Source: Candidatus Vogelbacteria bacterium CG10_big_fil_rev_8_21_14_0_10_51_16 (lineage in GTDB: Bacteria; Patescibacteriota; Minisyncoccia; Phycocordibacterales; JACRKE01). Taken from it: a stretch of DNA of 46,489 nucleotides. The notes under the pieces were generated by a model. That model was not told the DNA's origin, did no database searches, and saw nothing but the letters and a program-made list of their open reading frames with translations. Below, piece after piece: positions 7,226 through 44,106 of the stretch (position 1 is the first letter of the stretch; every line of letters begins with the position of its first letter). The DNA lies in the NCBI GenBank assembly GCA_002774795.1, contig PCYI01000001.1, forward strand, positions 12,116 to 58,604, given 5' to 3'. A program made the translations under genes and the position numbers.

Positions 7226-7260
7226 CTACCCCCTCCAACTCCCCCTGGCCAGGGGGAGGG
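7226..7260. repeat. Family A palindrome core only (no terminal repeats)
   Basis: CTACCCCCTCCAACTCCCCCTGGCCAGGGGGAGGG. Confidence 0.7.
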
Positions 7261-7263
7261 CCT

Positions 7264-10744: not shown

Positions 10745-12232
10745 TCAGTAATTGAGCAAACGCTTAGCCTTTTCATGGAAGCGAATCTTTTCGTGCGCTT
10801 TGGCTTCGATTTGGCGAATACGCTCGCGGGTGACACCAAACTCCTTGCCCACCTCCTCTAAAGTACGCATTACCCCGTCGTCGAGACCATGCCGCATCTC
10901 TAATATCTTTCGCTCTTTGGGTGAGAGGTCGTTTAAAATCTCGCGAATCTGGTCACGTAAAATGCGCCGAGACGACTCATTGTCTGGCGACAAAATCTTT
11001 TCATCGGCGATAAAGTCCCCGAGCATAGATTTATCTTCTGACGAATCCCCGACGGGGGACTCTAGTGAAATAGTGCTTTGGTCTATCTTCTCAATCTGGT
11101 GGACCTTATCCACCTCGAGTCCCATTTCAATAGCAATCTCCTCTGGTAATGGTTCGCGACCAAGATCCTGAGAAAGACGCCTCACCACCTGCTTGTATTT
11201 GGCGATAGTCTCTACCATGTGAACCGGAATACGGATGGTGCGTGATTGATCGGCAAGAGCGCGAGTAATAGCTTGGCGAATCCACCAAGTAGCGTAAGTT
11301 GAGAACTTGTACCCTTTTGACCAGTCAAATTTTTCAACAGCCTTAAACAGACCCATGTTTCCTTCTTGGATAAGGTCGAGAAGGGTCAGATCACTCGAAC
11401 GGCCGATATACTTCTTGGCGATAGAGACCACAAGGCGCAGGTTTGCCTTTACCAATAGATCACTAGCCTCTTTTTCTCCGAGAGCGATGCGCTTAGAGAG
11501 GTCTCTTTCGTCTGCCGCCGTAATGAGCTTATATTTGCCAATCTCACGCAGATACATCTGTACGGAATCAAGCCCTCCGTCACGCGATCGGCCAGATGAT
11601 TTGCCCTTGTACACAACCTCTTCTTCGGCAGAGGTGTCTAGTAGACCACCGCCCTCTAAAACATCAATGCCTGACTCATCAAACTTTTCATATAACTCAT
11701 CTAGAAAGATAACGTCATTCTCTATGTTTGGAAACTCCTTTAAAATTTCATGGTAGGTGATAAATCCTTTGGTGCGCCCTCTATCTATAAGCTGATTTAT
11801 CTTTTGCCCACGCACCCCTTTTTCACCGGACATTTTTGCTATGGCGGTATTGCGCCCCGGTCGTCCCCCGATTGCGATTCTGCCACCACTCCTAGCCTCT
11901 CTGGTTGTTCTGCTCGTGGAAACAGAGGGGATACGACGTGAATCCACCACAGCACTTCCTAAACCAGAAGACGAGCGCGTGGCACCCCCAGATCGCGCTC
12001 CCTTAACCGCGTGAGGTAGTACCGACCTTAAAGAAGCTCGTGATTTTTTAGCGGTCTTCTTGTTAGCTGGAGCGGGCTTAGACTTACTACGAAACAGTCT
12101 GGTAACAGTCCCCGCAGGCTTTCTCTTTGTCGACCCTCCGGAACGCACGTCGGCACCCTTGTGCCTACCTACTCTCGCCGGAGTGGCCAAGGTGCGAATT
12201 GAAACTTTTTGTTTGTTTGATGCTTTTTTCAT
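10745..12232 (-). CDS. rpoD: Primary sigma factor RpoD with a long basic N-terminal extension
   Basis: [54 protein letters not shown], and region 4 at the C-terminus. ATG at 12232. The internal Met at 11833 is an alternative start. Confidence 0.9.
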
Positions 12233-14054: not shown

Positions 14055-14062
14055 GGCGCAAT

Positions 14063-14153
<91 letters not shown>

Positions 14154-24203: not shown

Positions 24204-26159
24204 ATGACTTATCATATGACTACTCACGAAAAAGCACCGCGACCAGAACTTATCGGCACCATTTCCATAAACTCTAAGGGGGTTGGCTACGTGACCATTC
24301 CGGAGCGCCCCGATAATGACATCATCGTCCCGCCCGAGCGACTGGGCAACGCCCTCCACGGCGACACAGTAGCTGTCCGCCTCGGCCCCAAGGACTTCCG
24401 CGACCGTGACCAAGGCCAAGTGGTAAGAGTGGAGACTCGGGCTCGTGAGGAGTTTGTTGGCACCCTACAGGTAGAGGGAGAGATCTGGTACCTCGCCCCC
24501 GATCTACGGCGCATCCACGTTCGTTTTCATGTGCCGACAGATAAACTAGCTGGCGGAAAAGCCCACGACAAAGTACTCGTGCGCCTGCTTCACTGGCTCC
24601 CTTCCGATAACATGCCTGAGGGCGAAGTGATAGAGGTACTCGGTCCTGCCGGCGACAACAACGTCGAGATGAAGGCCATTCTGCGTTCGCAGGGCCTGGC
24701 TGACCACTTCCCACCAGAAGTAGAGGCCGAGGCGGCGGCCCTCCCGGATGAGATAAGTGTGGAGGAAATAGCTCGCCGTCGCGACTTTCGCGAGATTCTC
24801 ACCTTCACCATCGACCCAGACACCGCCCAAGATTTCGATGATGCCCTCTCCTTTATGCGTCTACCGAACGGCAACGTGGAGATTGGCATCCATATCGCCG
24901 ACGTGTCCCACTTTGTGCGCGAAGGCACGGCCCTAGACCGCGAAGCACAGAAACGAGCCACCTCGATTTATCTCGTCGACCGGGTCATTCCCATGCTCCC
25001 CGAACGCCTCTCGAACTCGCTCGCCTCACTCGAGGCAGACAAAGACCGCCTCACCTTCTCATGCGTGGTCACACTCACCCCAGAGGCCGAGACTGTAGAC
25101 TACTGGCTTGGCCGAGGGGTTATCCACTCCAACAAGCGTTTTACCTACGAGGAGGCCCAAGAGGTGCTAGACCGCAAGGAGGGCCTCTACTACGAGGAGC
25201 TCAACTACATGAATGAGCTCGCCAAAAAGCTTTCAGCCAAAAAGTTCGCGGCCGGGGCCATCGCCTTTGAATCCGACGAAATTAAGTTTAAGCTTGACGA
25301 TCAAGGCCGACCACTCTTTGTCTACAAAAAAGAACGTGGCGACACCCACAAAATGATTGAGGACTACATGTTGCTCGCTAACCGCGTTGTGGCCGAGCAC
25401 GTCTTCAATTACAAAGAGAACGGAGAGGATAATGTGTTCGTCTACCGCATCCATGACTATCCAAAGATAGAGAAGATGACGGCTCTCCAAGGCCTAGTGC
25501 GTCAGTTTGGCTACAAGCTAGACCTAAAAGATGGACAGGTGGAGTCCACTCAGCTCTCACGTCTCCTCGAACGCATTGAAAACACTCGGGAAGAACAGCT
25601 TATCGAGACCACCGTCATGCGTTCCATGGCCAAAGCTATTTACTCCACTAAAAACATCGGCCACTACGGCCTCGCTTTTGAATACTACACCCATTTCACC
25701 TCCCCTATCCGCCGCTATCCGGATGTCATGGTGCATCGCCTTTTAAGTACATACCTGGATGGTAAGGTGCCCGTTGGTGACAAGGTGCGCGAACGCTTAG
25801 AGAGCCTATGTACCCACTGCTCAGGCATGGAACGTCGCGCCATGGAGGCCGAATGGGACTCCATAAAACTAAAACAGGTGGAGTACATGACGGAGCGGAT
25901 TGGCAAGGTGTTCTCTGGTAAGATTTCCGGAGTAACCGCCTATGGTCTATATTTGCAAGAAGAGGAGTCGGCCGCTGAAGGCATGTTGCGGGTGCGCGAC
26001 ATGGTAGACGACTACTATGAGTACGATGAAAAAAACCTGCGGTTTGTGGGCAAAAAAGGTAAAGTGTACCAACTCGGCGACAAAGTCCAACTTCGCGTCA
26101 AAACGGCCGACCTAGAAACTCGCACCATCTCCTACGAGATCGTGGACAAAGAAGCGTAA
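24204..26159 (+). CDS. rnr: Ribonuclease R (RNB family 3-prime to 5-prime exoribonuclease)
   Basis: RNB motifs DPDTAQDFDDALS, IHIADVSHFV, YLVDRVIPMLPERLSN, HYGLAFEYYTHFTSPIRRYPD. C-terminal S1 domain. Confidence 0.92.
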   Translation: MTYHMTTHEKAPRPELIGTISINSKGVGYVTIPERPDNDIIVPPERLGNALHGDTVAVRLGPKDFRDRDQGQVVRVETRAREEFVGTLQVEGEIWYLAPDLRRIHVRFHVPTDKLAGGKAHDKVLVRLLHWLPSDNMPEGEVIEVLGPAGDNNVEMKAILRSQGLADHFPPEVEAEAAALPDEISVEEIARRRDFREILTFTIDPDTAQDFDDALSFMRLPNGNVEIGIHIADVSHFVREGTALDREAQKRATSIYLVDRVIPMLPERLSNSLASLEADKDRLTFSCVVTLTPEAETVDYWLGRGVIHSNKRFTYEEAQEVLDRKEGLYYEELNYMNELAKKLSAKKFAAGAIAFESDEIKFKLDDQGRPLFVYKKERGDTHKMIEDYMLLANRVVAEHVFNYKENGEDNVFVYRIHDYPKIEKMTALQGLVRQFGYKLDLKDGQVESTQLSRLLERIENTREEQLIETTVMRSMAKAIYSTKNIGHYGLAFEYYTHFTSPIRRYPDVMVHRLLSTYLDGKVPVGDKVRERLESLCTHCSGMERRAMEAEWDSIKLKQVEYMTERIGKVFSGKISGVTAYGLYLQEEESAAEGMLRVRDMVDDYYEYDEKNLRFVGKKGKVYQLGDKVQLRVKTADLETRTISYEIVDKEA

Positions 26160-26256: not shown

Positions 26257-26321
26257 CTTTGAGTTACGAAATGCGCGTTTTTCCCTCCCCTGGCCAGGGG
26301 GAGGGGCTTCGTAATTCACAG
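26257..26321. mobile_element. Short (65 bp) family A MITE flanked by a perfect 7-bp target-site duplication TCATTAG
   Basis: TCATTAG at 26250-26256 and at 26322-26328. Terminal inverted repeats are CTTTGAGTTACGAAAT and CTTCGTAATTCACAG. Confidence 0.8.
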
Positions 26322-26365: not shown

Positions 26366-28537
26366 CTACCGGGCCGCTATCGCCTCCGCCTCTTCAAATT
26401 TAATCGAAAGAACACGCGAAGTGGCTTCCTTGCCGAGAGTAATACCATAGAGGACTCCCGCATGCGACATGGTCTCACGATTGTGAGTGATGATGATAAG
26501 CTGGGAGCGTTCGGATAGCTTTTTGAGCATCTCGCCGTACTTCTTTGAATTGGCCTCGTCGAGAGCGGCATCGGTCTCGTCAAGCACCAAGAAGGGCGGT
26601 GGATTGACCTGCGAGACGGCGAAAAGGAGGGCGAGGGAGGCGAGCGTACGCTCGCCTCCCGAGAGCATCTGCAGACCGCGCAACTTCTTGCGTGGTAGGG
26701 CAATGTTTATCTCAATCCCCTCCTCCGTCTTTGCGTCCTCTTCATCTCCACTGTCGGTCTCAACCACGCCTCTTCGGCGCACCGGCGCGCGCACCACTTC
26801 GAGCGAGGCAGTACCGCCACCGAAAAGCAGAGCGAAATATTCGCGGAAATGCCGATTGATGGCTTCCACGCCTTCGTGAAAACGTGTCTTCAGCTGGGCA
26901 CCGAGGTCGTCCATGAGCTTCTCGAGGGAGCGAGCGCTCGCCGTGAGGTCCTCCACTTCTTTGGTGAGAAACTGGTCGCGGGCGGTAAGCTCCTCATACT
27001 CTTTAAGCACATCACTCCCCCCGCCGCCAACCTCTTCGATACGAATCTTTAAACGCTCGATATCACGCCGCGCCTTTTCCTGTGCCGCCCGGTCGGCCTC
27101 TGGCTCGACTTCGGTGCGTCCCTCACGATATCGCAACGCTTCGCGCCCCAAAAGAGCTGCCGCCTCACCACACTCCCGCTTAAAATCCGCCTCTTCGATG
27201 GCCAACTTTTCCTCACGAAGGCGTAGTAGCGAGAGGGCCGACTTCAACTCCTGGATATGACTACCGGCCGCAAAAAGCCGACGGTCGGCTTCGCGTACAG
27301 TCTCTGCGTACGAATCTAGAGAAGTCCGGGCTTCTTCGACACGAGCCACAAGCGCCCGCTCCTGGTCTATCGCTTCATGTAATAGTCTAGAGGCATTACG
27401 CTCTTGTCCCTCAAGCTCATGCAGGCGCCTCTCTTTTTGCGAGCGAATCTCGTCTAGATGCGCGGTCGAGTTCTGTGGTAACACCTCTTGACCGCAGGTC
27501 GGACAACGGTGACCAGCCTGGGGCAGTGTGTCCGTCTGGGCCAGAGCGGCACGGCTGGCCTGCGCCATCCCTTCGAGCCGCCCGAGTGTGCGGGCCACTT
27601 CATCTTTCGTATCGCGCACGTGCGCGAGAGTGCTCTCCGCTTCGGCACGCTGAGCGAGGAGCTGTTTGCGTGAAGCGTTGCCCGGAGCGGCCATTTCGGA
27701 AAGTTCGGACTGTTCCTTTTCCGCGACTTGAAGCTCCTCACCCTTTAATTTTCTCTCATGTTCATGCTCACCGCGAGCCCTCGCTAAATATCGTTCTTCA
27801 CTGAAGAAGTATTGCCGATACTGCTCGCAGAGGTCGGCCCTCATCGCCTCCGCTCGCTCTAGCTCACTCACCTGCTTTTTAAGGTACTTGAGGTGCGGAG
27901 CAATCTCGCGACGAAGAGAGTCCACCTGTCTCAGGGTCTCCTCCGTCTTCTCGAGCTTCTTCCTTGCCTCCTTGCGCTTGTATTCAAAAACAGCAAGGCC
28001 GAGCGCGTCCTCCACTAGCTTAAGTCGCTCGTTTGCATTTACCGCGAGCATGCGGTCGGCCTCACCTTGAGAGATTATAAAGTGGCTCGACACCCCCAAC
28101 CCCACTGAACTCATCAGCTCCAGCACATCCTTAAGGCGTACTTTGCTTTGATTTAAATAGTAGTCGTTAGTGCCATCGCGATAAACGTGACGAGCAAGCA
28201 CCACCTCATCGAAAGTAAACGGAAAAGGCCGCCCATCCTCACTGGTGGCCTCGGTTCCCACACTAAGTGTCCCCGGACGGTTATCGAAAGTGATGACTAC
28301 CGATGCTCGGTTGAGGCGGGCCGATTCGTGTGAACCGTTAAAGATGAAATCCTCACCGCGCTTCCCGCGCAAGGTCGAGAGCGCCTGCTCGCCCAACACC
28401 CAGCGAAAGGCCTCGGCCACATTGCTTTTACCAGAGCCATTCGGCCCCACAATTGCGGTAATGGGTGCCGTAAAAGGCAATGCCGTCTTGTGGGCAAAAG
28501 ACTTAAAGCCGGTAAGCTCTATGCGTTTTAGGTACAT
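26366..28537 (-). CDS. smc: SMC-like ATPase, short (723 aa), no recognisable hinge, central CxxC motif
   Basis: SMC-type head: FKSFAHKT, GPNGSGKSNVAEAFRWVLGEQ. C-terminal LSGGERTLASLALLFA, FLVLDETDAALD, IIITHN. CPTC is encoded at 27494-27505. Confidence 0.8.
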   Translation of the reverse strand: MYLKRIELTGFKSFAHKTALPFTAPITAIVGPNGSGKSNVAEAFRWVLGEQALSTLRGKRGEDFIFNGSHESARLNRASVVITFDNRPGTLSVGTEATSEDGRPFPFTFDEVVLARHVYRDGTNDYYLNQSKVRLKDVLELMSSVGLGVSSHFIISQGEADRMLAVNANERLKLVEDALGLAVFEYKRKEARKKLEKTEETLRQVDSLRREIAPHLKYLKKQVSELERAEAMRADLCEQYRQYFFSEERYLARARGEHEHERKLKGEELQVAEKEQSELSEMAAPGNASRKQLLAQRAEAESTLAHVRDTKDEVARTLGRLEGMAQASRAALAQTDTLPQAGHRCPTCGQEVLPQNSTAHLDEIRSQKERRLHELEGQERNASRLLHEAIDQERALVARVEEARTSLDSYAETVREADRRLFAAGSHIQELKSALSLLRLREEKLAIEEADFKRECGEAAALLGREALRYREGRTEVEPEADRAAQEKARRDIERLKIRIEEVGGGGSDVLKEYEELTARDQFLTKEVEDLTASARSLEKLMDDLGAQLKTRFHEGVEAINRHFREYFALLFGGGTASLEVVRAPVRRRGVVETDSGDEEDAKTEEGIEINIALPRKKLRGLQMLSGGERTLASLALLFAVSQVNPPPFLVLDETDAALDEANSKKYGEMLKKLSERSQLIIITHNRETMSHAGVLYGITLGKEATSRVLSIKFEEAEAIAAR

Positions 28538-28542
28538 GGAAA

Positions 28543-28561
28543 GGCAGTAGGCAGTAGGCAG
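28543..28561. repeat. Heptamer array (GGCAGTA x2.5) ending 5 nt from the smc start codon
   Basis: In the gene orientation it reads TGCCTACTGCCTACTGCC-tttcc-ATG. Confidence 0.75.
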
Positions 28562-28646
28562 CCCAGACGCTTTGGTTGGGGTAAGCGGTAGAGAAGCCAG
28601 CCATTACATACAAGTATATCATTTAGAACGGGGAAAGATTTGTGTA

Positions 28647-28676
28647 TAAAAAAATGCGGCATTTGTATTCCGCATT
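28647..28676 (-). terminator. Intrinsic terminator downstream of rnc and of the MITE
   Basis: The minus strand reads AATGCGG-aatacaaatg-CCGCATT followed by TTTTTT. Confidence 0.6.
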
Positions 28677-28682
28677 CTCCTA

Positions 28683-28824
28683 CTGTGAGTTACGAAATTG
28701 CCCCTCCCCCTGGCCAGGGGGAGGTTGGGAGGGGGTAGGATGCAGAAATACGGCCCAAAATCTACCCCACCCTAGCCCTCCCCTGGCCAAGGGAGGGAAT
28801 AGGTCCGAATTTCGTAATTCAAAG
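28683..28824. mobile_element. Family A MITE (142 bp) with a 6/7 matching flanking 7-mer (TCTCCTA / TGTCCTA)
   Basis: Terminal repeats are CTGTGAGTTACGAAATT and AATTTCGTAATTCAAAG. There are two internal GC palindromes. Confidence 0.8.
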
Positions 28825-28827
28825 TGT

Positions 28828-28857
28828 CCTACTGCCTACTCACTACTCACTACTGCC
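28828..28857. repeat. Heptamer arm (CCTACTG-type), inverted relative to 28543-28561
   Basis: cctactgcctactcactactcactactgcc abuts the rnc stop region. Confidence 0.7.
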
Positions 28858-28862
28858 TGAGC

Positions 28863-29564
28863 CTACCTCCCCCATCCTCTGGCGGTGAGGCCCCGCTCGG
28901 CGGCATCCTGCTCCGCCTCCTGCTTGGAGTGACCGTTGCCTTCGGCCACTTTTTTGTTACCAATAAAAAGACCGACCGTGAACTGTTTTTCGTGGTCAGG
29001 CCCTGTCTCTGAGAGCAACTGGTATGAGGGAGTAATGCCATCAAACTCCTGCGCCTTCTCCTGAAAAAAACTTTTTGAGTCTCGCCAGAGCTGTTTTTTG
29101 ACGATACCTTCGAGCTTGGGAACAAGCTGGGCCAAAATAAACTCTTTTGCGGACTGATATCCTTGGTCGAGGTAAATAGCCCCTATCACAGACTCAAAGG
29201 TGTTCGCAAGGATAGACTGCCTGGCCCGACCGGTATCTTTTGCTTCTCCTCTTGAAAGCAAAAGAAAGTTGTCCATATGAAGCTCGCGAGCGGCCTCGCT
29301 GATGCTTATCGTATTTACAAGGGCGGCTCGGTATGAAGTAAGCTCGCCCTCTTGCTTGTGGGGATACTCGCTATAAAGATACTCGGTAATGACAAGCTCT
29401 AAGACCGCGTCGCCCAGGAACTCCAGGCGCTCGTTGTGGCCAAGGCCAAATGATTGGTTTTCGTTTAAATACGAACGGTGCGTAAAAGCCTGTACAAGGA
29501 GGTCTTTGTTCTTAAACGAAGCATTGATGAGGCGCGCAAACTGCGCAAAGTCTGGAAGTTCCAT
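28863..29564 (-). CDS. rnc: Ribonuclease III
   Basis: Signature ERLEFLGDAVLELV. C-terminal dsRBD (GPDHEKQFTV...GNGHSKQEAEQDAA). Confidence 0.93.
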   Translation of the reverse strand: MELPDFAQFARLINASFKNKDLLVQAFTHRSYLNENQSFGLGHNERLEFLGDAVLELVITEYLYSEYPHKQEGELTSYRAALVNTISISEAARELHMDNFLLLSRGEAKDTGRARQSILANTFESVIGAIYLDQGYQSAKEFILAQLVPKLEGIVKKQLWRDSKSFFQEKAQEFDGITPSYQLLSETGPDHEKQFTVGLFIGNKKVAEGNGHSKQEAEQDAAERGLTARGWGR

Positions 29565-29646: not shown

Positions 29647-29732
29647 CCCCTCTCCTGGCCAGGAGAGGGTTAGGGTGAGGTGGGTTGCGGGAAGCCTACC
29701 CCCTCCCAACCTCCCCCTGGCTAGGGGGAGGA
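29647..29732. repeat. Family A palindrome modules (both cores, no terminal repeats)
   Basis: CCCCTCTCCTGGCCAGGAGAGGGTTAGGGTGAGGTGGG ... CTACCCCCTCCCAACCTCCCCCTGGCTAGGGGGAGG. Confidence 0.7.
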
Positions 29733-29751
29733 GCACTCACGGCAAACCAAT

Positions 29752-31240: not shown

Positions 31241-32557
31241 TCAGGTTGTAACCATGGCCGACCGCAGCCTCTTGTAGAGGCCGTTGCCGGCCGCCCAGCC
31301 CCGCCGCCCCATCTTCCATACTCCGAAGAGCAGGAGGAAGGGAGTCGGGAAAAGGACGGCCGTGCCGAGACCGAGGATGGCCCAGCCAAGCACGCGCACG
31401 AGCATGCGTGGCCGGCCGAGCCAATCGGCAAGGAAGTCGAGCGCCGTGTTCACAACACTCGCCACCGTGCCGAGAGTCTCCCGGGGCCAGTTCCAGATGG
31501 CGATCGCGCCGACGACGAACAAAAACTTCTTGTTCGTTGCCAGCTTGAAGGCCTTCCGGGGTAGCCATGTGGCACCGCGGAGCACGGCGTGTTTCCAGCC
31601 GTGCTTCATGGTACCTCGAGCCACGGCCTTGCGGGCGCCGTAGCCGGCCTTCGCCAGCTTGCCAGCCCCCGCGACGATGCCACCGATCATAGCGGCCTCT
31701 AGGACCGCCCCAGCTACCGTCATCGGCTCAACCGAGTGGCCGAGCTTATACTCCCGCTCCAGCTCCTGGATGGAGCCGAAGAAGAAGTCTTCGGTCGCGG
31801 CTACGAGCTCCGTGGAGCGGATGCGGATGACCCCACCGTTGTCCGGCAGCTCGAACCGCCGGAGGTAATGGTGGCCATCCTCGTCGATGCGAATGAGGGT
31901 GAGGATGGCTCGCTCCCGAGACGTGTAGGGCCTCGTGAGCCACTCGGAGGCGGGAACGGCGGGCGTCGCGTCCGACGAAGCCGCGAGAGCGGCAACGTCG
32001 ACAACGACCGTCGTTACCCGCGAGAAACCACGTCCGCCTGCCGCGAGGAGCCTGCTCGGCCACGAAGCGACCGTGGCCATCGGGTCCGACTCGAGACTGC
32101 TGGCCTCTCGCGAGAACCAGCGTTCAGTCTTTTCCGGCCACTTCTGGACCTTGCCCGCGAGGGTCTGTAGCGCGTGCGCCAGTTGGCGCTTGCACTCTTC
32201 CCACGCGAGAGGATGATCAAGAAAGTGGGCAGGGACCCGCAGCGTGCGGTGGGTATGTCGCTCCGACACCGTCTCGAGCTGCGGCATCTCGCCGAGCTCG
32301 TCGTAGAGGCGTCCGATCTCCGGCCACTTCCTTGCCGCTTCGAGTGCGGCTGGGCCGTGGCAGTCGAGGAGGAGCAGGTCCTCCGCCGACGCCGTTGTCA
32401 CCGTACTGTACGGCACGCCATCGGCCAAGGCCGAAGCGCGCAGGAGCACGGCCGGGGTGGTGATCTGCTCGGCATTCGGGCCGAGCATGAACACCAATGC
32501 CCCGAGAACGAGTCCGAGTTGAAACAACTTCCAGACAATGAAGCGCTCTTTAGTCAT
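31241..32557 (-). CDS. Hypothetical multi-pass membrane protein on a high-GC island
   Basis: N-terminal TM (LFQLGLVLGALVFML) and C-terminal hydrophobic helices. Third codon positions are strongly G/C. GGGAGGTGA lies 5-7 nt before ATG 32557. It has its own terminator. Confidence 0.55.
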   Translation of the reverse strand: MTKERFIVWKLFQLGLVLGALVFMLGPNAEQITTPAVLLRASALADGVPYSTVTTASAEDLLLLDCHGPAALEAARKWPEIGRLYDELGEMPQLETVSERHTHRTLRVPAHFLDHPLAWEECKRQLAHALQTLAGKVQKWPEKTERWFSREASSLESDPMATVASWPSRLLAAGGRGFSRVTTVVVDVAALAASSDATPAVPASEWLTRPYTSRERAILTLIRIDEDGHHYLRRFELPDNGGVIRIRSTELVAATEDFFFGSIQELEREYKLGHSVEPMTVAGAVLEAAMIGGIVAGAGKLAKAGYGARKAVARGTMKHGWKHAVLRGATWLPRKAFKLATNKKFLFVVGAIAIWNWPRETLGTVASVVNTALDFLADWLGRPRMLVRVLGWAILGLGTAVLFPTPFLLLFGVWKMGRRGWAAGNGLYKRLRSAMVTT

Positions 32558-32934
32558 GCGCCTCACCTCCCTTCAGTCCATCAGTTTCAAGCCGACAGAC
32601 TATTTTGGATAGGTAGGATAGTTAAAACCTGATTTCAGTTGTAGGGTCCAGTTGATTAGATACGTTCCGAGGCCTTGCCTCGTCTCTCTTGGCTGGCTGC
32701 CAAAAGAGGTCTAACCTACGCTAATGTCAATGGTATCATATTATATGGTTCTTGTCAAATATGAAAACAGCTCTGCCTTTTCCTTATTTCCGTCCTCGAT
32801 GAGCTGTTTTTATCCACAGTATCAGACCACACACTCACCGAACCATGGCTCGTAAAAGCACAAAACACGGAGCACCTGCCCGCAATGCTACGCATAAGCG
32901 TTGCAGGCGGGCAAAAACCAAAGGCGCCAAGTCC

Positions 32935-40398: not shown

Positions 40399-40650
40399 AT
40401 GATGAAAACCATCTCTACCACAGAGGCGCGTAAAAACTTGAGTGAACTTGTTTACGAGGTACAACGTACCGGCTCCACGGTGGGTATTATGCGTCACGGA
40501 AAATTGGAGGCCTACCTGTCCCCGGCCCCGACGTGGAACGAGGAGCTTTCAGATACCACTAATATGGTAACCATGGGAGGCGCTTTTGATTTTCTCCACG
40601 AGGAACCGGACAGATACACAGACGCGGACCTTATCGAACGCTATGCATAA
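40399..40650 (+). CDS. Type II antitoxin, Phd/YefM family
   Basis: MKTISTTEARKNLSELVYEVQRTGSTVGIMRHGK. The stop overlaps the toxin start (ATGCATAA). Confidence 0.8.
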   Translation: MMKTISTTEARKNLSELVYEVQRTGSTVGIMRHGKLEAYLSPAPTWNEELSDTTNMVTMGGAFDFLHEEPDRYTDADLIERYA

Positions 40651-40987
40651 GCAACCGCCCATGGGCACTGTAGTCTTGCTCCGTTTCCCTTTCACCGACC
40701 TGTCGGGAGCCAAGAGGCGACCGGCAGTGGTTGTCGGCCATGCCCACGGAGGAGACCTGGTGGTCGCGTGCGTGAGTTCTAAATATGAAACATGCGGTCC
40801 CTATGATGTTATAACAAAACAAGAAGAAAGCTCCTTTGCTCAAACCGGCCTTCACGCTACTTCTGTAATATGTGTCGATAAATTAGCCACTCTGCAACCT
40901 ACGATTGCCACCGGTAAACTTGGGGTTGTTTCCAGTAAACACTTTATAGAGATAAAGAAAAAGCTAAAAATGTTGTTCCGACTTTAG
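40643..40987 (+). CDS. Type II toxin, PemK/MazF-like
   Basis: GTVVLLRFPFTDLSGAKRRPAVVV...SVICVDKLATL. 114 aa. Confidence 0.75.
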   Translation: MHKQPPMGTVVLLRFPFTDLSGAKRRPAVVVGHAHGGDLVVACVSSKYETCGPYDVITKQEESSFAQTGLHATSVICVDKLATLQPTIATGKLGVVSSKHFIEIKKKLKMLFRL

Positions 40988-41045: not shown

Positions 41046-41074
41046 CTACTGCCCACTGCCTACTCCATACTGCC
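41046..41074 (+). repeat. Four CTACTGC-type heptamers abutting the DUF3095 start codon
   Basis: ctactgc ccactgc ctactcc atactgc c ATG. Confidence 0.7.
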
Positions 41075-43932: not shown

Positions 43933-44106
43933 CTTTGAGTTACGAAATGTGAGTTTTTCCCTCCCCTGGTCAGGGAAGGAGTTCCTCCCTCTCCTGCCCG
44001 AGGAGAGGGTTGGGGTGGGGTGGGAGGGGTGGGGTAGCTTTAGAGCCATACTACCCCCTCCCAACCTCCCCCTGGCCAGGGGGAGGGGCAATTTCGAAAT
44101 TCACAG
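43933..44106. mobile_element. Full-length (174 bp) family A MITE flanked by a perfect 7-bp target-site duplication TCTAAAT
   Basis: TCTAAAT at 43926-43932 and at 44107-44113. Terminal repeats are CTTTGAGTTACGAAAT and AATTTCGAAATTCACAG. There are three internal GC palindromes. Confidence 0.85.

Follow-up and report, generated by a model that had tools for sequence, protein, structure and literature searches.

A short SMC-type protein with a CxxC apex in place of the hinge, encoded next to rnc in a Candidatus Vogelbacteria genome

Contig PCYI01000001.1 of Candidatus Vogelbacteria bacterium CG10_big_fil_rev_8_21_14_0_10_51_16 was analyzed over a stretch of 46,489 nucleotides (nt; positions 12,116 to 58,604 of the contig), which is referred to here as the window. 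It encodes a 723-amino acid (aa) protein in which an SMC (structural maintenance of chromosomes) ATPase head is combined with shortened arms and a CxxC motif at the tip, and from which the ~160-residue hinge domain is gone. Hinge loss and short arms are family-wide, and the zinc-hook-like apex is limited to a minority branch that includes the Vogelbacteria organism of the window; this distribution is the main addition to a preliminary description, which had been made from the sequence alone. The gene is considered, with moderate confidence, to be an ortholog of smc that has been remodeled by loss of the hinge and halving of the arms, and whose product would form a homodimer through a zinc hook at its tip and serve in chromosome organization.

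The public record of an identical protein (PIR45291.1 / UniRef100_A0A2H0RFF0) derives from a metagenome-assembled genome (MAG) of Candidatus Vogelbacteria (CG10_big_fil_rev_8_21 series; Patescibacteria, Parcubacteria group) and is annotated in the databases just as “hypothetical protein” or “RecF/RecN/SMC N-terminal domain-containing protein.” Short SMCs of this kind are labeled “AAA family ATPase” or “hypothetical” by annotation pipelines because they fall below the cut-off of the SMC model.

An SMC-Type Head

Each of the head motifs quoted in the preliminary description was located in the translation of the 723-aa open reading frame (ORF), namely GFKSF (residues 10-14), GPNGSGKSN (31-39), RWVLGEQ (45-51), LSGGERTLASLALLFA (625-640) and LVLDETDAALD (650-660). 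The ATP-binding cassette (ABC) head is SMC-type and has kept all catalytic motifs. In Pfam, SMC_N spans residues 2-706 (E 2e-64), and the NCBIfam model TIGR02168 (SMC_prok_B) matches with 509.1 bits in two stretches that comprise only the head and the proximal arm; because the middle of the model is left unmatched, the equivalog cut-off of 567.35 is not reached. Among PDB sequences, the Smc heads of B. subtilis and Geobacillus were the top matches (E 1e-87), aligned with residues 1-224 for the N-terminal and 495-718 for the C-terminal half, and E654 was found opposite the catalytic Walker-B position 1118 (Q in the 5xg3 chain, E in 3zgx). Prokaryotic Smc head-plus-joint structures (5xei, 5h68, 5xns, 5xg3) also ranked first when an AlphaFold2 (AF2) model of the protein was submitted to Foldseek, with the first Rad50 structure at rank 19. 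The TIGR02168 score and the PDB and Foldseek matches thus bear out the earlier assessment of the head as unmistakably SMC-type.

The residues K37, R57, Q157, S626, D653, E654 and H685 are invariant across the family alignment. The heads and the adjoining part of the arm are highly conserved, whereas conservation is low farther out, and the C-terminal strand VLYGITLGKEATSRVLSIKFEE aligns with VLYGVTMQESGVSKVISVKLEE of B. subtilis Smc; together, this pattern and this alignment would be compatible with retention of a kleisin interface. The head also contains two insertions specific to the lineage, which are poorly conserved, have low predicted local distance difference test (pLDDT) scores and are absent from the B. 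subtilis Smc alignment: a segment of ~14 aa in the N-terminal half (~28229-28279, aa 87-103) and an acidic loop, VVETDSGDEEDAKTEEG, in the C-terminal half (26735-26779, aa 587-601).

Short Arms and Loss of the Hinge

The AF2 model, which was built on 58 orthologs and has a mean pLDDT of 81, shows a split head with N-terminal arm helices at residues 182-283 and 287-334 and a C-terminal arm at 357-463, 483-503 and 507-572. Between these helices lies an apex loop of 22 non-helical residues (335-356; pLDDT ~50), in which residues 344 and 351 form a beta-bridge; as the CxxC motif belongs to this loop, it is located at the very end of the antiparallel coiled coil formed by the arms. The preliminary description had placed the motif at the midpoint of the coiled coil and had proposed a structure prediction of the apex; the AF2 monomer agrees with that placement.

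The N-terminal arm helix comprises 153 aa in the model, which is roughly half of the canonical length, and the arms measure ~150-190 residues as compared with ~340 residues (~47-50 nm) in canonical SMCs; the coiled coil of ~153 residues is estimated to be ~23 nm long at 1.5 Å per residue. B. subtilis Smc has an arm of 344 aa and 47 nm (PMC5344682). Judging from their position, the breaks at 464-482 and 504-506 can be read as the SMC “joint.” In 124 of 156 family members, with both types of apex represented, 161-163 aa separate the Q-loop from a conserved GRLEG motif located toward the distal end of the N-terminal arm. The length of the arm is therefore under constraint, in line with a general finding on SMC arms (Burmann et al., 2017; PMC5344682).

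No match to SMC_hinge (PF06470) was obtained for the window SMC in Pfam at E<=1, and precomputed PF06470 matches were present in none of 120 homologs. A profile of the CxxC-bearing apices, run against all PDB sequences, did not match any solved SMC hinge, nor did an apex profile of relatives without the CxxC, for which generic coiled coils were returned. The absence of a hinge, as noticed earlier, is supported both by the negative Pfam search and by the profile of the CxxC-bearing apices.

A Zinc-Hook-Like Knuckle at the Apex

As first reported, nt 27494-27505 translate to CPTC (residues 345-348) within the segment HRCPTCGQEV. Hook-type orthologs have both C345 and C348 without exception (58/58 and 63/63), G349 is conserved in at least 90%, and the conservation of the cysteine pair, which the preliminary description had wished to see checked, extends to all clusters with at least 49% identity. 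The 58 hook-type orthologs share about 47-66% identity, and the apex around the CxxC shows a mean column identity of only 34%; since both cysteines are invariant amid such a weakly conserved apex, the motif is not a chance occurrence. In 39 of these 58 proteins the pair represents the sole cysteines, and no other conserved Cys or His was found near the CxxC among the hook-type orthologs. The hook-type consensus reads G-[ED]-K-x-C-P-Y-C-G-Q-[VI]-[IVL], and a second flavor, GRCP[LT]CG[SR], includes the apex variants GRCPLCGS and GRCPTCGRE, which are near the KCPVCGRE of P. furiosus.

The profile of the CxxC-bearing apices was derived from 25 apex segments; its sole full-length alignment (positions 3-84) was to the zinc hook of P. 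furiosus Rad50, with marginal E-values of 0.0022 for 1l8d and 0.0043 for 6zff. The remaining PDB matches cover just the CxxCG knuckle of zinc fingers or ribbons. As a control, the profile of Cys-free apices reached only E ~0.5 on the same Rad50 chains. When the 25 segments were searched individually against Pfam, Rad50_zn_hook was matched by 6 (best E 3e-4) and the generic Zn_ribbon_3 by 10 of them, and in the AF2 model ~10 non-helical residues are present on either side of the CxxC, unlike in the tight Rad50 hook. The resemblance to the Rad50/SbcC hook that had been claimed from the sequence is seen with the apex profile, which aligns with 1l8d, and with the family model PF04423 for 6 of the 25 ortholog apices, but not with PF04423 for the window SMC.

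In the proposed mechanism, the single C-P-x-C-G knuckle at the tip of the antiparallel coiled coil would act as half a zinc site. As the two thiols are the only conserved ligands that a single chain can contribute, a tetrahedral Zn2+ site would need two chains, and two protomers might share one such ion in the manner of the Rad50/SbcC hook, giving rise to a constitutive tip-to-tip homodimer. ATP would then drive engagement and disengagement of the heads, and the complex would organize or segregate the small chromosome like Smc-ScpAB, presumably with an unlinked kleisin. A chimera of B. subtilis Smc in which the hinge was swapped for the P. furiosus Rad50 hook supported normal growth, and the combination of an SMC head with a hook is therefore functional in principle (PMC5344682). 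Hook and hinge were also reported to be interchangeable in human Rad50 (PMC6969161), and the archaeal ASRP/ClsN proteins possess zinc hooks with a two-chain zinc site pattern (PMC9389158).

Distribution of Hinge Loss and of the Putative Hook

All of the 120 best 90%-identity clusters that were examined have lengths of 670-771 aa, and the 150 best 50%-identity cluster representatives among 1.84 billion proteins range from 663 to 782 aa. In a collection of species-representative genomes, at least 550 matched stretches encode relatives, and the best 80 of these all encode short proteins; they belong to MAGs labeled Vogel-, Nomura-, Campbell-, Yonath-, Adler-, Kaiser-, Lloyd- and Taylorbacteria, Paceibacterota and Minisyncoccia. 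A mid-protein CxxC was found in 58 of the 120 closest clusters, including all with at least 49% identity. The other 62 clusters are without it, are ~30-40 aa longer and contain, in all but one case, 0-1 Cys. The motif becomes rarer in the broader samples, being present in 7 of the 150 best 50%-identity representatives and in the short SMC of 8 of the 80 best related genomes.

The AF2 model of one relative without the hook, P0095 (pLDDT 80), has an N-terminal arm of 152 aa and a tip made of two short helices (328-346 and 351-374), from which it follows that the hook-less relatives do not have a hinge either. As the CxxC occurs in a minority only, the general trait of the family is the loss of the hinge together with short arms, and the hook is a feature of a sub-lineage. 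The tip insert of the hook-less clusters P0034-P0120 (for example, residues 318-377 of P0095) comprises ~50 aa, for which AF2 predicts two short helices, and is similar to neither hinge nor hook. In a neighbor-joining tree of the heads only, the hook state is strongly clustered, the nearest neighbor sharing the apex type for 61 of 63 hook sequences. Since the hook state falls into ~5 clades, this crude distance tree is indecisive as to a single or multiple origin of the hook.

Genomic Context

The gene order at the locus is rnc-smc, as in B. subtilis. In 72 of 80 related genomes, no more than 10 kb separate an rnc homolog from the short smc, and in 52 this homolog is the immediate upstream neighbor with the same orientation, so that the canonical rnc-smc neighborhood recognized in the window holds well beyond it. 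In the syntenic locus of a distant relative (L001), the order rpmF, nusB-Nudix, rnc, smc, rnr, rpsP, khpA, trmD ... rpoBC is kept, including the fusion of nusB with a Nudix gene, homologs of which lie near smc in 70 of the 80 genomes. The presence of the short gene in the canonical rnc-smc slot argues for an ortholog of Smc over an accessory paralog. No nuclease, defense or repair partner adjoins smc, the neighbors in the window being housekeeping genes (rnc, nusB-Nudix, rpmF, rnr, rpsP), and no phosphoesterase of the Mre11/SbcD type was detected among the scanned window ORFs of at least 120 aa or in the annotated syntenic loci. It had also been noted that the window contains no scpA/scpB or sbcD-like gene, and scans of the window ORFs with hidden Markov models (HMMs) and Pfam likewise found none.

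Alternative Explanations

Several observations weigh against a remodeled Smc with a zinc hook. The E-values of the apex profile are marginal and in part reflect coiled-coil composition, the window SMC itself does not match Rad50_zn_hook (PF04423) at E<=1 and its own apex gives weak zinc-finger matches, and the apex of the monomeric AF2 model is of low confidence (pLDDT ~50). Moreover, most family members are without the CxxC, yet have the same arms, and the chemistry of the tip may therefore not be critical, or dimerization may be achieved otherwise. Searches for the kleisin and its partner were also negative. HMMs for ScpA and ScpB were seeded with B. subtilis sequences, checked and extended against PDB chains, and run against all stop-to-stop segments of the window and of 82 related loci (1.49 Mb), plus 29 further loci; neither protein was found in this partial coverage of the genome (best E 0.17), with seeds drawn from Firmicutes, Actinobacteria and Chlorobi and without a positive control from a candidate phylum. 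The 29 further loci consist of a ~11 kb extension of the contig and of ~200 kb of Joint Genome Institute (JGI) metagenome DNA that shares a repeat element with this genome, has a G+C content close to that of the window for most loci and probably stems from this genome or from one closely related to it. The scpAB genes of canonical systems mostly lie apart from smc. A second protein with an SMC head and genes of the sbcD/mre11 type were likewise not found in the window, the contig extension, the 82 related loci and the ~200 kb retrieved by means of the repeat, which again cover the genome in part, and a second canonical SMC could still be located elsewhere in it.

Among the alternatives, the one that survives best accepts the orthology with Smc and assigns the CxxC to a role other than a hook: a docking knuckle for the CxxC of another protein, a redox-active dithiol of the CPYC type, or a lineage-specific ornament, with dimerization, if any, mediated by packing of arm or tip helices, which is also the route that the Cys-free relatives would have to take. 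This is unlikely on balance, but deserves to be taken seriously. The 143 of the 150 best representatives without a CxxC, with their 0-1 Cys, identical arm length and two-helix tip, would be readily accommodated, and the consensus C-P-Y-C equals the active-site tetrad of glutaredoxin; however, AF2 shows no thioredoxin fold around the motif. Likewise, the apex segments match zinc ribbons more often than Rad50_zn_hook (10/25 versus 6/25), and the non-helical flanks of the CxxC depart from the tight Rad50 hook, whereas strictly two invariant thiols at the tip, followed by a G after the second Cys, constitute the pattern of Rad50, SbcC and ASRP, and some apices (GRCPLCGS, GRCPTCGRE) come near the P. 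furiosus sequence.

It is considerably less probable that the protein is an accessory SMC-like paralog and that a canonical Smc is encoded elsewhere; the paralog might be a cohesion factor for repair in the manner of RecN, or a defense ATPase like LmuB of Lamassu or a component of MADS. Short arms without a hinge do recall the architecture of RecN or LmuB, and the PADLOC models mad3 and LmuB score 203 and 101 bits, respectively, but the SMC model reaches far higher with 509 bits. In addition, the gene occupies the rnc-smc slot among housekeeping genes in 72/80 genomes with no adjoining defense or repair partner, the ~200 kb of additional DNA contain no other SMC head, and the genomes are very small, with contigs of 0.5-0.67 Mb carrying the short smc. 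A reading as a defense ATPase (Lamassu LmuB, MADS mad3, Wadjet JetC) was rejected, as the SMC model outscores the PADLOC matches and the surrounding genes have housekeeping functions.

There is hardly any room for an SbcC/Rad50-type double-strand-break repair ATPase that is merely SMC-like. Its apex CxxC, the match of the hook profile to Rad50 and the absence of a hinge would be in keeping with such a protein, but the Rad50 models of NCBIfam (NF041034, NF002244, NF002572, NF003034) score only 46-61 bits against cut-offs of 700-1087, the Pfam match to SbcC_Walker_B (E 0.007) is under threshold, the structural neighbors are Smc heads with a joint, and no phosphoesterase of the Mre11/SbcD type accompanies the gene. 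The preliminary judgment that the protein is probably a condensin rather than an SbcC is supported by the SMC-type scores of the heads, the lack of clustering with sbcD and the retained linkage to rnc. Finally, a truncated, frameshifted or misassembled smc, for which short length is the only argument, is practically negligible as an explanation, given that the identical protein is found on 5 contigs, that all 266 related sequences retrieved as protein clusters or cluster representatives have the same length and architecture, that the species-representative genomes encode relatives in at least 550 matched stretches, and that the AF2 model comprises a complete head and a closed coiled coil.

The remodeled Smc thus set against these alternatives can be extended to a broader proposal, which is put forward tentatively and with somewhat less confidence than the assignment of the window gene itself. 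Parcubacteria/Paceibacteria might run their chromosome on a hinge-replaced “mini-SMC” as sole condensin, with tuned arms of half the length and a tip that is, depending on the sub-lineage, either a Cys-free two-helix cap or an intermolecular zinc hook.

Comparison With Known Systems

With bacterial Smc of the B. subtilis type (TIGR02168), the window SMC has in common the SMC-type ABC head, the joint-like discontinuities, the antiparallel arm and the location of the gene directly downstream of rnc. It differs by the missing hinge, by its shorter arms (~150-190 versus ~340 aa), by the CxxC at the tip and by a TIGR02168 score under the cut-off (509 < 567). The zinc hook of Rad50/SbcC (PF04423; PDB 1L8D, 6ZFF) offers a parallel in the single C-P-x-C-G at the apex of an antiparallel coiled coil, whereas the heads of the window SMC are SMC-type, Mre11/SbcD does not adjoin, ~10 non-helical residues flank the motif and PF04423 is not matched. 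RecN, with ~550 aa and without an apex CxxC, is likewise a short SMC-superfamily ATPase that has no hinge, but its model TIGR00634 gives the window SMC only 50.2 bits against a cut-off of 407.85, and the genomic context differs.

An SMC head and arm with a hook at the tip are also combined in the engineered Smc(Zh), in which the hook of P. furiosus Rad50 was placed on B. subtilis Smc (Burmann et al., 2017; PMC5344682), although the window SMC is natural and its arms are about half as long. Its mean head-to-tip linker, ~175 aa by rough mapping, is near a minor mode of natural arm lengths at 163 aa (PMC5344682). The ASRP proteins (ClsN/coalescin, Sph1/2; NF045487) are short members of the SMC superfamily with a zinc-hook motif in the place of the hinge, and this family with zinc hooks was judged to be archaea-specific (PMC9389158). 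In contrast to these archaeal proteins, which form a separate clade and co-exist with canonical SMC, the window SMC is bacterial and much more similar to bacterial Smc, and its score with the ASRP model is 71.6 bits, where the cut-off is 300. An oceanic, Actinomycetes-like clade was described as having “hinge-less” SMCs, from which the CXXC motif is stated to be absent (Sussfeld et al., 2025; PMC12153180). In this natural lineage of bacteria, too, the SMC has lost its hinge and kept the SMC-type head, but the clade was assigned to Actinomycetes-like marine bacteria, is without a CxxC, and neither Patescibacteria nor a zinc hook is mentioned in that study (PMC12153180). Full-text literature searches yielded no account of a hingeless SMC from Patescibacteria, nor of a bacterial Smc that naturally bears a zinc hook. 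The window SMC is apparently a natural counterpart of a hinge-to-hook swap that was previously only engineered, and it is found in an Smc ortholog with halved arms.

Other Features of the Window

The coordinates of the gene, of its parts and of further genes are collected in Table 1. The intergenic spacers of the window contain a G/C-rich palindromic element of ~57 nt with the consensus CTACCCCCTCCCAACCTCCCCCTGGCCAGGGGGAGGGGCAATTTCGTAATTCACAGT (43-68, 7236-7261, 26289-26306, 28701-28726, 29708-29733 and 44063-44088). Its 18-nt core has 11 matches with up to 3 mismatches, as compared with 0.04 expected by chance, and a 21-nt core is present on 24 JGI metagenome contig stretches, mostly from one sample series; the element looks like a dispersed repeat of this organism, similar to repetitive extragenic palindromic (REP) sequences or miniature inverted-repeat transposable elements (MITEs). 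The spacer between rnc and smc (28538-28862) has 325 nt, as compared with 18 nt in L001, is bounded by inverted repeats of the GGCAGTAG type and holds two of these G/C-rich hairpins, and the repeat element may have been inserted between the two genes. Tandem heptamers, (CTGCCTA)n on the coding strand, occur at 28543-28561, 14058-14097 and 41049-41074 (7 matches versus 0 expected). Two of these repeats sit just upstream of the smc and DUF3095 gene start codons, and a third copy is found at the 5' end of the dnaG ORF.

No gene is called in L001 at the position corresponding to the predicted 441-aa ORF (31241-32566). According to the gene calls for this contig (L083), an antitoxin gene of the PhdYeFM type precedes the MazF/PemK-type toxin gene, and the two represent a type II toxin-antitoxin pair between thrS and the DUF3095 gene.

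Table 1. Positions of the short smc gene, of its predicted domains and motifs, and of further genes in the window.
Feature	Position (nt)	Strand	Basis and remarks
Short hingeless SMC gene	26366-28537	-	723 aa, ATG start; ORF list, Pfam SMC_N, TIGR02168
Head, N-terminal half (aa 1-181)	27995-28537	-	Aligned to B. subtilis Smc head residues 1-210
Walker A GPNGSGKS	28424-28447	-	N-terminal head half, which also holds R57 and Q-loop Q157
N-terminal arm helix (aa 182-334)	27536-27994	-	AF2; short break 284-286; distal end is the conserved R-x-LGRLEG
Apex loop (aa 335-356, TDTLPQAGHRCPTCGQEVLPQN) with CxxC knuckle	27470-27535	-	Non-helical in AF2; apex profile match to 1l8d
C345-P-T-C348, putative zinc-hook cysteines	27494-27505	-	Translation; invariant among hook-type orthologs
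C-terminal arm (aa 357-545)	26903-27469	-	AF2; discontinuities 464-482 and 504-506; best Foldseek match 5xei
Head, C-terminal half (aa 546-723 and stop codon)	26366-26902	-	Aligned to B. subtilis Smc C-terminal head
Signature LSGGE	26651-26665	-	C-terminal head half
Walker B/D-loop LVLDETDAALD	26558-26590	-	C-terminal head half, which also holds H685
rnc (RNase III)	28863-29564	-	Directly upstream of smc, same strand; Pfam
rnr (RNase R)	24204-26159	+	Convergent downstream neighbor, context only; Pfam RNB/S1; syntenic in L001
NusB (aa 7-136) and NUDIX hydrolase (aa 179-293) fusion, 313 aa	29752-30693	-	Pfam
Predicted 441-aa ORF between rpmF and rnhB	31241-32566	-	No Pfam/NCBIfam match; overlaps several opposite-strand ORFs
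MazF/PemK-type toxin gene	40586-40987	+	Pfam

Implications

SMC proteins are commonly defined by their hinge, a domain regarded as important for function, which serves in dimerization and DNA binding and has been proposed to act as a gate. Evolution would supply independent evidence on the features that are essential to an SMC protein if a large natural lineage does without the hinge and one of its branches uses a zinc hook. If the short protein were the sole condensin of its organism, it would represent a natural proof that neither the hinge fold nor arms of 50 nm are needed for SMC function, and an architectural hybrid of SMC and Rad50. With its 723 aa and arms of ~23 nm, it is of a handy size for full-length structural and single-molecule work, and would permit testing the effects of arm length and of the type of tip on loop extrusion. 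The finding also bears on the organization of the chromosome (~0.6-1 Mb) in the very small cells of these candidate phyla.

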